Source: Octopus vulgaris
Lineage: Eukaryota
Reading direction: 5' to 3'
Assembly: GCA_951406725.2 (NCBI GenBank)
Contig: OX597817.1
Location: 16,244,001-16,308,000 of the forward strand
Length of the DNA: 64,000 bases
Of this stretch, positions 11,861 through 52,587 are shown piece by piece. A model generated the notes under the pieces. The model searched no databases, had not been told where the DNA came from, and was given only the letters and a program-made list of their open reading frames with translations. Made by a program: the position numbers and the translations under genes. Every line of letters begins with the position of its first letter. Position 1 is the stretch's first letter.

Positions 11861-11864
<4 letters not shown>

Positions 11865-12301
11865 TAAGCAATAAAGGGTTTAGCAACGAATTGCCTTACC
11901 ACATACCGAATTTAGAAATAGCAGTCAAAGAGTTATAGCTATTTCTTCTACTAAAAAGGAGATCTCAGTAAAAACAGCAATTGGAAGGCAGACACAAATA
12001 GGTAAGAGAGAATTAATTGACGGCAATCTATCTTAAAATTGTATGATAGATTGCCGTCAATTAATTCTCTCTTACCTATTTGTGTCTGCCTTCCAATTGC
12101 TGTTTTTACTGAGATCTCCTTTAGTAGAAGAAATAGCTATAACTCTTTGACTGCTATTTCTAAATTCGGTATGTGGTAAGGCAATTCGTTGCTAAACCCT
12201 TTATTGCTTAGTATTACTTAAATTTTCCTCGAATGAGGCTTTTACATGCCGAAGACTACTTGGTGTAATTGATAATTATTCCAAATTAATTAATTTCACC
12301 C

Positions 12302-12304
<3 letters not shown>
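11861..12304 (+). mobile_element. TA-embedded palindromic insert (structured family S, copy 1)
   Basis: Arms 11861-12032 / 12045-12214, 12-nt loop, 90-bp unpaired tail, (TA)n on both sides. Confidence 0.85.
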
Positions 12305-44103: not shown

Positions 44104-44369
44104 TTGGAGTATTGCTCTCTTTACTCTTTTACTCTTTTACTTATTTCAGTCATTTGACTGCGGCTATGCTGGAGCACCGCCTTTAGTCGAGGAAATCTAC
44201 CCCAGGACTTATTCTTTGGAAACCTAGTACTTATTCTAACGGTCTCTTTTGCCGAACCGCTAAGTTACGGGAGCGTAAACACACCACCATCGGTTGTCAA
44301 GCGATGTTCAGGGGACAAATACAGACACACAAACATATACACACACATACATATATATATATATATTAT

Positions 44370-44685
44370 TTATAATAAAGGGTTAAATGCAACAAGTTGC
44401 TCAAAACCACATACCGAAAATATTAGAAATAGCAGCCAAAATTGGTTACTATTTCCTCTACTAGTAAAAAGTCTCCACAAACAAACAGAATTTGTAAGCT
44501 GTATATGGCAAAAAAGGCTGCTATTTCTAATATTTTCGGTATGTGGTTTTGAGCAACTTGTTGCATTTAACCCTTTATTATAATTATTATAACCCTTACC
44601 AAATATGGTCTTTTCCATACCGACAAATCTACTAGGTGAAATTGATTAATTTTATTAAATTAATTATATTCCACCCTTTATTGAA

Positions 44686-44688
<3 letters not shown>
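44370..44688 (+). mobile_element. TA-embedded palindromic insert (family S, copy 2)
   Basis: Arms 44370-44437 / 44516-44583; homologous to 11861-12304. Confidence 0.85.
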
Positions 44689-44740
<52 letters not shown>

Positions 44741-44745
<5 letters not shown>

Positions 44746-44829
44746 ATCCAGGTTTCTCGGAGCACTGGGCCACTTGGTGTTGAATAGATATACTATTAAA
44801 TTAGTATCTAATTCTCTCACCCTTATTAA

Positions 44830-44835
<6 letters not shown>
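44741..44835 (+). mobile_element. Family S 3'-end fragment (copy 3)
   Basis: ccacttggtg-[AT-rich hairpin]-caccctt between (TA)n tracts. Confidence 0.6.
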
Positions 44836-49852: not shown

Positions 49853-50474
49853 TTTGAAACTTTTGAAACAACTAATAGACGCATATCAACCCTTTACAGC
49901 TCTAATTTACCAAAGCGAGGTGTCTAATCACTGAAAGTGCACAACGACTAGACGAGTAGTCGGTGTTACGACTTAACGCTTACGTAGATTAGAGAAAAAA
50001 ACCCGCGAAGAATGGGTTTCAGATACATTGCATAAAGAAAATATAGAATATCAACCACAATTCGGTGACTGTTCACTTCAATAGCCGCTACCGAACAAGA
50101 GTGACACAATATATTGCAGTTAATGATAACGTGAGTGGTTGGTGTATAAATCTATTAAAAGCGAATGTATTAAAAAAGAAGAAAAAAAGGGAGTCAATTT
50201 ATCACGGGGAAATATATAACTGTATTACTTAAAGTAGTGAAAATACATTCTAGGTACTTTACTGGAATAATAAATTGGATGGTGGCTTTCAAGGAGATAA
50301 GTTTTCAGCGGCTTTACAATGGAGATAGACAAAATTATGCAGTACAATTTTAGTTTTTCTAAGAAAGATATTTAATCACTGATAGGGCACAATGCACAAT
50401 TACTCAATTAATAATCGCCACTATGATTTAATAAGTGTCTGTGTGTCTGTGGGTGGGTATATATATATATATAT

Positions 50475-50749
<275 letters not shown>

Positions 50750-50868
50750 TAATTAAGATTCATTTGAATCAGGTACTTAAGTTGAAGCACCAAGTCAGTC
50801 CAGTATTATCCACACAGTTCGAAATAAGGTGAATAAAATCAAAATAAGTAACACGATTTCAAGTAGTA

Positions 50869-50956
50869 ATGCAGTACGACCGTTTCAAGCGACTCCATTT
50901 AATTGAACAGCACAATCATTACGTCAATTCAAATACAATGCTATCTTCAGCTGCAC
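50869..50956 (-). ncRNA. Type I hammerhead ribozyme (left arm of palindrome)
   Basis: gtgcag-CTGAAGA-tagc...gctt-GAAA-cggtcg-TA-ctgcat. Confidence 0.7.
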
Positions 50957-51304
50957 AAATATGGATTTTCAACAGATAAGATATATTAATATGATTTTTT
51001 AAAAACTTTCAACAGAGCGCACAATCATTACGTCAATTCAAATACAATGCTATCTTCAGCTGCACAAATATGGATTTTCAACAGATAAGATATATTAATA
51101 TGATTTTTTTTAAACTTTCAACAGAGCAAGAGGATGGAAGAATTCAATATTGTCACTTTTGTAGCAAGAATTCAATGTTGTCACTATTGCTGCAAGAATT
51201 TCTTGCTACAATAGTTACAACATGAAATTCTTCCATCCTCTTGCTCTGTTGAAAGTTTTTAAAAAATCATATTAATATATCTTATCTGTTAAAAATCCAT
51301 ATTT

Positions 51305-51392
51305 GTGCAGCTGAAGATAGCATTGTATTTGAATTTATGTAATGATTGTGTTGTTCAATTAAATGGAGTTGCTTGAAACGGCCGTACTGCAT
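51305..51392 (+). ncRNA. Type I hammerhead ribozyme (right arm of palindrome)
   Basis: gtgcag-CTGAAGA-t-agca...tgct-t-GAAA-cggccg-TA-ctgcat; predicted cut after A51386. Confidence 0.75.
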
Positions 51393-51513
51393 TACTACTT
51401 GAAATCGTGTTACTTATTTTGATTTTATTCACCTTATTTCGAACTGTGTGGATAATACTGTACTGACTTGGTGCTTCAACTTAAGTACCTGATTCAAATG
51501 AATCTTAATTACT

Positions 51514-51594
<81 letters not shown>

Positions 51595-51763
51595 GTGTGA
51601 ACATAATCAAAAAGGGTAATAACATAGGTTATTATTACCAGTGGCCTAGCACAAAAGACGAATTAGTCATTAGACAAAATATTATTCATATAGAAATATA
51701 ATAAAGGCTCCCAAATAAGGAAGCTTAGTGTGTCTCTAGCACTAAGCTTCCTTATTTGGGAGC

Positions 51764-51821
<58 letters not shown>

Positions 51822-52431
51822 CACCCACAGACACACATACACTTATCAAATCATAGTGGCGATTATTAATTGAGTAATTGTTGCATTGTGCCCTATCAGT
51901 GATTAAATATCTTTCTTAGAAAAACTAAAATTGTACTGCATAATTTTGTCTATCTCCATTGTAAAGCCGCTGAAAACTTATCTCCTTGAAAGCCACCATC
52001 CAATTTATTATTCCAGTAAAGTACCTAGAATGTATTTTCACTACTTTAAGTAATACAGTTATATATTTCCCCGTGATAAATTGACTCCCTTTTTTTCTTC
52101 TTTTTTATACATCCGCTTTTAATAGATTTACACACCAACCACTCACGTTATCATTAACTGCAATATATTGTGTCACTCTTGTTCAGTAGCGGCGATTGAA
52201 GTGAACAGTCATTGAGTCGTGTGGATGTCACGCGAGCTATTTTGTGGTTGATATTCTATATTTTCTTTATGCAATGTATCTGAAACCCATTCTTCGCGGG
52301 TTTTTTTCTCTAATCTACGTAAGCGTTAAGTCGTAACACCGACTACTCGTCTAGTCGTTGTGCACTTTCAGTGATTAGACACTTCGATTTGGTAAATTAG
52401 ATTTGTAAGGGGTTGATATGCGTCTATTAGT

Positions 52432-52587
52432 AGTTGTTGTTGTTGTTGTTGTTGTTGTCGTCGTCGTCGTCGTCGTCGTCGTCGTTGTTGTTGTTGTTGC
52501 TGCTGCTGCTGCTGTTGTTGTTGTTGTGGTGGTTATTGTTGTTGTTGTTGCTGCTGCTGCTGCTACTGCTGCTGTTTTTGATGATGT

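Follow-up and report, generated by a model that had tools for sequence, protein, structure and literature searches.

A predicted multi-helix RNA fold spans the two insertion ends of non-autonomous Penelope-like elements in Octopus vulgaris

An RNA fold of about 180-190 nt, predicted from inserts that lie in (TA)n arrays of Octopus vulgaris, spans both points where almost all copies of these elements end, and is therefore likely to be a start signal for a reverse transcriptase (RT). We consider it probable that the fold is an RT-recruitment and two-site start structure for a Penelope-type (Hydra-clade) enzyme rather than a new ribozyme. The window is the whole 64,000-nt stretch that was analysed (contig OX597817.1, positions 16,244,001 to 16,308,000). 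The original prediction, made from the letters of the window, had placed a conserved structured RNA at the end of a Penelope-like element (PLE) and allowed two roles for it, RT recognition or self-cleavage. A conserved structure of the above size, on the predicted strand and at the terminus of a Penelope-like retroelement, is supported by our analysis. The support extends to the RT-recognition role, as the insertion ends map onto the fold and the elements form chimeras with Hydra PLEs, whereas the role of new ribozyme was not borne out: a hammerhead motif is already present in every unit, and the ends are distributed over several TA/AT positions and not at one bond.

Inserts in the window

Copy 1 (family F1) has an inverted arm on the minus strand at 11861-12033, identified by self-comparison, whose outer end is the first of the two end positions (site A) and is joined to (TA)n, and a direct arm on the plus strand at 12034-12304, which ends at the second (site B). 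Alignment to full 593-nt units shows that the direct arm starts about 10 nt 3′ of the hammerhead cleavage site, the hammerhead itself being absent. On this plus-strand arm H1 (12123-12127 with 12256-12260) encloses H2 (12129-12161) and the H3 domain, together occupying 12123-12260. The junction domain of H3 (12166-12252; H3 is 12166-12173 with 12245-12252) encloses H4 (12175-12198, hairpin 12181-12192), a pyrimidine/AT linker where end mapping places site A at about 12212-12214, and the predicted H5 (12227-12238). It is followed at 12262-12304 by the terminal hairpin H6 (predicted, 12262-12300), CTT and the mapped site B. The helix words originally predicted for this copy are present, H1 at 12123/12256, H2 at 12130/12154, H3 at 12166/12245 and H5 at 12227/12235.

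Copy 2 (family F2, 561-nt unit) consists of an inverted arm at 44367-44515 (minus strand, outer end at site A) and a direct arm at 44516-44688 (plus strand) that runs from the 3′ strand of H2 to site B, with the expected words of H3 at 44536/44616, of H5 at 44598/44606 and of the terminal hairpin at 44635-44675. Copy 3 (family F3, 534-535-nt unit; 44741-44835, plus strand) lies in the TA array after copy 2 and is a lone A-to-B stretch; of the fold it contains the 3′ part alone (44770-44824). Copy 4 (family F4, 439-nt unit) has its inverted arm at 50475-50519 (minus strand, outer end at site A) and its direct arm at 50520-50650 (plus strand), from H4 to site B; here H5 is found at 50583/50592, the 3′ strand of H3 at 50599 and the terminal hairpin at 50612-50636. 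The 3′ word of H4 is intact in the inverted arm of copy 4 alone, as had been implied, and has one changed letter in the right arm. The inverted arms give self-matches at 11861-12214 (98%), 44367-44586 and 50475-50555, and copy 3 has none, such that three of the four inserts are palindromic; these three (copies 1, 2 and 4) are ended by one A and one B. (TA)n arrays adjoin all four. The four predicted inserts are real, and a fifth copy exists at 51598-51781 on the minus strand, a second copy of insert 4 with 98% identity to 50470-50655, which arose via a larger local inverted duplication. This duplication covers about 2.6 kb (49867-52435), its arms being 92-100% complementary.

Tandem units with a hammerhead motif

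The inserts are almost certainly 5′-truncated copies of non-autonomous elements of the PLE type. A first look at the genome gave 1928 candidate matches for copy 1, 1858 for copy 2, 2005 for copy 4 and 1350 for copy 3, of which 40 each were scored, and among these best 40 per family the top matches of the window copies are 95-100% identical. The original prediction had expected that walking upstream in the longest copies would lead to an RT plus GIY-YIG frame. Instead, the long copies are head-to-tail, non-coding units of 593-594 nt (F1), 561 nt (F2), 534-535 nt (F3) and 439 nt (F4), which are near-identical, free of ORFs and present on many contigs. Units (439-594 nt) occur single, head-to-tail or head-to-head in (TA)n; arrays were seen with periods of 593, 561, 534 and 562-564 nt, and for F4 one partial tandem (439 nt, locus L062). 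No open frame of at least 200 aa lies within the units in 106 loci, the long frames there being simple repeats or flanks, and none of 84 loci taken in genome order from pattern matches continued into an ORF. Beyond the F1/F2 core, F1-F4 units have no BLAST-level similarity to each other.

On descriptor search, a type I hammerhead motif was found 5′ of the fold and on the same strand in F1-F4, F5, F6, F7, F1c and F12, with one motif per unit and a distance of 75-130 nt to the fold. The core, stems I-III and the NUH site were all found, stem I having 6-7 bp and loop II 19-63 nt. The stem-III loops are self-complementary or nearly so, like those of dimer-cleaving animal hammerheads. The motifs of F2 and F6 have the U3-A8 core variant, which is reported for PLEs in the available text of PMC4209133. 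The earlier statement that no hammerhead is present therefore holds for the window but not for longer copies, since all four families have the motif upstream; it went unseen because the window copies end at least 10 nt downstream of the cleavage site. It may be noted that the Rfam hammerhead models do not match these long-loop motifs, so that the call is based on our own descriptor, and that one version of the descriptor stopped at the first GAAA and missed motifs that a first descriptor had found.

With a hammerhead motif in each unit, consecutive units and no coding capacity, the families fit non-LTR retrozymes as far as sequence can tell, self-cleavage being predicted. The insertions themselves have the architecture of Penelope-like elements, that is, 5′ truncation, tandem or inverted layout, a tail at one end and a microsatellite target. 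Contigs from three runs that we guessed to be RNA span the head-to-tail joint, and the same joint exists in DNA; no splice joint was seen in these contigs. By eye, an E-box-like word after site B is common to the units (L023 1150-1550, L041 1700-2010, L144), and in the same three loci donor-like and acceptor-like splice words flank the hammerhead.

Conservation of the fold

The core of copy 1 folds with z -4.58 on the plus strand (0/200 shuffles as stable) and z -2.30 on the minus strand (5/200), and full natural copies of families 3 and 4 give z -3.17 and -5.16; in several families sense and antisense fold equally well. Patterns derived from the fold matched the genome 2084 and 3671 times as against 5 and 53 times for the reversed controls. 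Through loci taken from these matches, the fold was found to recur in at least 10 further subfamilies (F1b, F1c, F5-F9, F12 and F3 variants). Pairwise tests gave 56 for F1-F7 (shuffle maximum 37) and 51 for F7-F4 (shuffle maximum 41), F1-F4 being not significant, and by these scores the two main family groups appear to be connected through intermediates.

The four inserts had been described as different in primary sequence, which does not hold for copies 1 and 2 (73% identity over 168 nt). As these two are plainly related, their agreement is weak evidence of covariation, and the informative contrasts are those with families 3 and 4 and with families elsewhere. A rule-based search for the helices worked in 14 of 17 copies, and 15 copies from both groups were then registered by hand. 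Of the 105 H3 cells in this set 99 are paired, each of the 7 positions having changed on both sides, and in H6 the fourth pair is G-C in some copies and A-U in others. When the H3 strands are swapped between the two family groups, pairing falls from 5.87/6 to 4.24/6. Within the close F1/F2/F5 group (21 copies) 96.4% of cells pair as compared to 94.5% in shuffles, and a two-sided change is seen in 4 of 34 pairs, which was matched by 130 of 500 shuffles; this sample cannot test H3 since it was partly picked by H3 sequence. RNAalifold found no consensus on a sequence-only alignment of the 15 distant copies, because the 3′ strands of H3 were out of register, and single-sequence pair probabilities of H3 in four F3-group copies were 0.01-0.54.

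A covariance model (R1) trained on the close F1/F2/F5 group only recognised held-out families on the right strand, namely F6 (58 bits), F3c (26 bits, E 0.003), F3b (25 bits, E 0.005) and F7 (23 bits, E 0.01); F3 and F4 scored 11-14 bits (E 1.4-3.7), which is not significant. F12 folds unaided into the arrangement of H1, H2, H3 and H6 with new pairs (z -5.11). The positions of H3, H4 and H6 are fixed relative to A and B across families with units of 439-594 nt, and some families have reduced H1 and H2 or lack them altogether. From the predicted pairing as a whole we judge the fold to be real, with H3, H4 and H6 as its constant and H1, H2 and H5 as its variable parts. The conserved words are few and nearly invariant, and mostly helix strands. 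The Rfam comparison proposed for the window returned no family at gathering score, the fold itself matching no class model of the known self-cleaving ribozymes at this score, and six loci searched at E up to 1 gave microRNA-model noise alone, far below the cut-off.

Two sites of insertion ends

On mapping the 3′ ends of 195 distinct insertions from five families, 238 of 261 ends were found in two ranges, those of site A and of site B. Site A lies inside the fold, just after H4 and a CTT/AT run, and site B just after H6 and a CTT run. TA repeats adjoin 201 of these 238 ends but only 4 of the remaining 23. The inverted insertions number 66; an A end is combined with a B end in 55 of them, one is A+A, one is B+B and 9 have an unclassified end, so that A+B accounts for 55 of the 57 classifiable cases. 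The A and B ranges were chosen from histograms, and each query used to pick the loci contained the whole fold; such queries favour B, and the bias would add B+B and not A+B pairs. The stretch from A to B is about 95-130 nt and is always predicted to pair back through H3. The A ends of F1 fall mostly in one 10-nt bin (31/41), and the B ends occupy a number of TA/AT positions in a stretch of about 20 nt. At the 5′ side truncation is variable and many copies read through the hammerhead cleavage site, with no pile-up of 5′ ends there (of 228 ends, 11 lie in the bin that precedes it, 23 in its own bin and 19 in the next). A peak of 5′ ends at +82 proved to be a masking artefact.

Penelope-like elements with open frames

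Five PLE families with open ORFs of 717, 727, 842, 899 and about 980 (984) aa were found, carrying DKT, R-x-R-W, a C-terminal GIY-YIG without CCHH, and CxxC/CxH; the GIY-YIG expression missed the 717-aa ORF. The 717, 842 and 984-aa ORFs have an exact CxCX5C linker, the 727-aa ORF has a degenerate one, and none was found in the 899-aa ORF. By these motifs and their layout, following the criteria of PMC8557442 (section 11), whose available text also gives (TA)n targeting and canonical hammerheads for this clade, we class all five as Hydra-clade PLEs and as candidate partners of the fold families. In each family a hammerhead of its own and two ends joined to TA precede the start codon. Hairpins and pyrimidine/AT runs come before these ends, but the overall folds differ. 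The searches gave 9478-35307 first-look candidates, of which the best 63-138 were scored per search, and hence other Hydra families may exist. Among the candidates, at least five Hydra-clade families have many open-frame copies (loci L312, L333, L363, L386 and L402), some in 3.2-3.6-kb tandem arrays; PMC8557442 lists Mollusca for Hydra and names no octopus family in the text available.

We did not find the fold in the ORF-bearing families. R1 was not significant on Neptune-type or Hydra termini, 8 fold cores, aligned locally to the termini of 4 masters, remained at shuffle level (best 3/200), and a pattern joining the fold end to a Hydra ORF start matched 16 places without a contiguous master among them. 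A few words shared with the tail of the 899-aa family had suggested homology to the fold, which was rejected as the similarity did not exceed shuffles. At two loci (L378 and L374) short remnants of a Hydra ORF start lie past the B end of the fold, beyond a short TA run; these are not contiguous masters either.

At three loci, fold elements are joined directly to Hydra PLEs of three different families without a TA spacer. At L281 an F3-type copy runs from hammerhead stem III into an RT fragment of the 899-aa family, and the same junction is present at L283; the five families came to light through searches with this fragment and two relatives. At L386+L424 a copy of the 842-aa ORF has its usual 3′ region (91% to L425), and its own terminus is replaced by an F12 fold ending at B, the switch being placed about 430 nt before the family's own hammerhead. 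At L392+L428 an F12 arm ending at B stands head-to-head, again without TA, to a copy of about 973 aa ending at its own A, which is the A+B rule across two different RNAs. These chimeras are single loci and chance finds, not from a full screen, and they could be old rearrangements or deletions between nested insertions. When 138 5′ ends of ORF copies were screened for arms of the fold type, two loci were flagged, one being the element's own repeat and the other (L196) having a short spacer; as it missed L392, this screen is incomplete.

A Neptune-type partner was also considered and rejected. The Neptune-type family is young, has two ORFs (RT-EN of 781 aa) and likewise inserts into TA, and it carries a hammerhead-like motif with U3-A8; the fold is missing from its terminus, however, and no direct junction was seen. 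The Neptune profile (40 of 120 relatives), run over 203 loci, hit two, neither contiguous with the fold; it is blind to Hydra ORFs (that of L196 was missed) and has no bearing on Hydra. In this family an upstream ORF1 overlaps the 781-aa frame in another phase, and the terminal repeat has repeated CCAAT/CRE-like boxes (both at L127 and L137). Locus L106, at first sight a complete element flanked by two repeats, proved to be a segmental duplication of 5.5 kb. Fragments of several other families, small, palindromic and hammerhead-bearing, pile up in the same TA arrays (L106 2980-3160, L136 and L075), and one of these matches the terminus of the 717-aa Hydra family.

Role of the fold

In the reading that we prefer, with the fold as an RT start structure, multimeric transcripts would be cut by paired hammerheads and may circularise, as the retrozyme literature would suggest; since many copies read through the cleavage site, circles or uncut multimers are the likely templates. 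A PLE protein, probably a dimer, would bind the fold and nick both strands of the TA repeat. cDNA would then be primed internally, at site A from one strand and at site B from the other, both start sites following a hairpin and a CTT/AT-rich run. Where both cDNAs survive, their head-to-head joining would yield a palindrome that ends in A on one side and in B on the other, which is the pattern seen in the insertions. The A-to-B stretch would correspond to the PLE 'tail', supplying the 3′ strands of H3 and H1, and a Hydra-type RT-endonuclease would act in trans on the retrozyme transcripts. Tentatively, and as a possibility that we rate below even, the fold may be a two-site loading scaffold for a dimeric Hydra-clade RT-endonuclease, in which H3 ties A to B and the subunits prime opposite strands of the TA repeat. 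If so, the PLE tail and the head-to-head insertions would be explained in structural terms, and the RNA of about 190 nt would be a portable cis-signal that launches the copying of other RNAs, as the locus of the 842-aa ORF copy would illustrate.

It is unlikely, though worth weighing, that local hairpins with CTT/AT signals set the ends on their own and that H1 and H3 are kept for RNA stability, circles or hammerhead foldability. The autonomous families, with hairpins and pyrimidine/AT runs at both ends in different overall folds, agree with this, as do the reduction or absence of H1 and H2 in some families and the prediction that retrozyme circles are highly self-paired (available text of PMC7229834). 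But H3, H4 and H6 stay in place with respect to A and B, while elsewhere in the unit F1-F4 have no BLAST-level similarity beyond the F1/F2 core, and the A-to-B stretch always pairs back through H3. A new self-cleaving or ligating ribozyme, with A and B as the RNA 3′ ends that it makes, seems to us quite improbable. A multi-helix junction with a few nearly invariant words, the missing Rfam match and the fairly sharp A end of F1 are what such a ribozyme would show; yet each unit already contains a hammerhead motif, the B ends are scattered, the conserved words are mostly helix strands, and for another PLE, initiation at internal sites has been shown to occur with no RNA cleavage (PMC11167929, available text).

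We hold it very improbable that the families are terminal repeats of further autonomous PLEs and the tandem units by-products, with no self-propagating non-autonomous lineage. Families do remain unseen, at most 138 of the 9478-35307 Hydra candidates having been scored per search, but on many contigs the long copies consist of tandem units that are near-identical and free of ORFs, and 0 of the 84 loci in genome order continue into an ORF. That the structure acts in single-stranded DNA, by rolling-circle or fold-back transposition, and not in RNA is hardly credible. Palindromic inserts, tandem arrays, a terminal hairpin and the folding of the antisense in several families would be compatible with it, whereas the hammerhead motif in every unit, the frequent G-U pairs on one strand, the variable 5′ truncation and the direct junctions with RT elements point to RNA.

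Comparison with known systems

The element class is already known. Like the animal non-LTR retrozymes in the available text of PMC7229834 and bioRxiv 10.64898/2026.07.22.740005, the octopus elements are short, of low GC and arranged in tandem, and each of their units is non-coding and contains a single type I hammerhead, with PLEs co-occurring and with a unit length inside the reported range of 51-972 bp; the authors link retrozymes to PLE terminal repeats. They differ from the described non-LTR retrozymes in their long hammerhead loop II, and the same text does not mention a conserved structure other than the hammerhead, a pair of fixed ends, a (TA)n target or cephalopods. Inverted PLE insertions have a tail at one end only according to the available text of PMC3846280 and PMC8557442, and the pseudo-LTR with inverted copy described there is similar in its 5′-truncated, tandem and head-to-head copies and in the extension at one end. 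In contrast, the octopus tail is 95-130 nt and not 30-40 nt, it pairs back upstream, the elements are ORF-less and the A+B pairing has been counted (55/57).

The Poseidon PLE of Anolis, from what is available of PMC11167929, has its tail between two internal RT start sites downstream of the hammerhead; its enzyme cuts and extends both strands of the target, is predicted to form a dimer and does not need hammerhead cleavage in vitro. The octopus elements are alike in the two sites that bound the tail downstream of the hammerhead, in the AT-rich target and, as predicted, in the extension of both DNA strands, but the Poseidon sites lie within an ORF, with one AC-rich stem-loop and in one family, while those of octopus lie in a six-helix predicted fold and in many non-coding families.

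The open literature, in so far as its text is available, yielded neither the fold nor a connection between it and the two start sites, and no retrozymes of cephalopods; the families may nevertheless be listed as repeat consensus entries in Repbase, in subscription papers or in the supplements of PMC8557442, PMC13282606 and the bioRxiv preprint, all of which fall outside this scope. The octopus repeat paper (PMC13282606) lists recently active Penelope-like families and does not use the word ribozyme in its available text. The fold bears on RNA recognition by PLE proteins, on the one-end tail and on the mobiliser of animal retrozymes, which are subjects of the available text of PMC11167929, PMC8557442 and bioRxiv 10.64898/2026.07.22.740005. 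The octopus genome offers here a compact candidate signal with natural compensatory variants in a dozen families, two mapped start sites and several open Hydra ORFs, and thereby the question becomes a direct in vitro experiment.

A further relation is to the Hydra-clade PLEs (available text of PMC8557442, section 11), which share (TA)n targeting and hammerheads and whose open ORFs in octopus are joined to the fold elements at three loci; the five octopus Hydra families have their own different termini and the fold elements encode no protein. The A-to-B tails of the autonomous families are different multi-helix structures, pairing with the start-codon region (tail region of L312, and L406). Also, in the 980-aa family site B comes after a long AT-rich hairpin and CTTTATT, as in the fold families.
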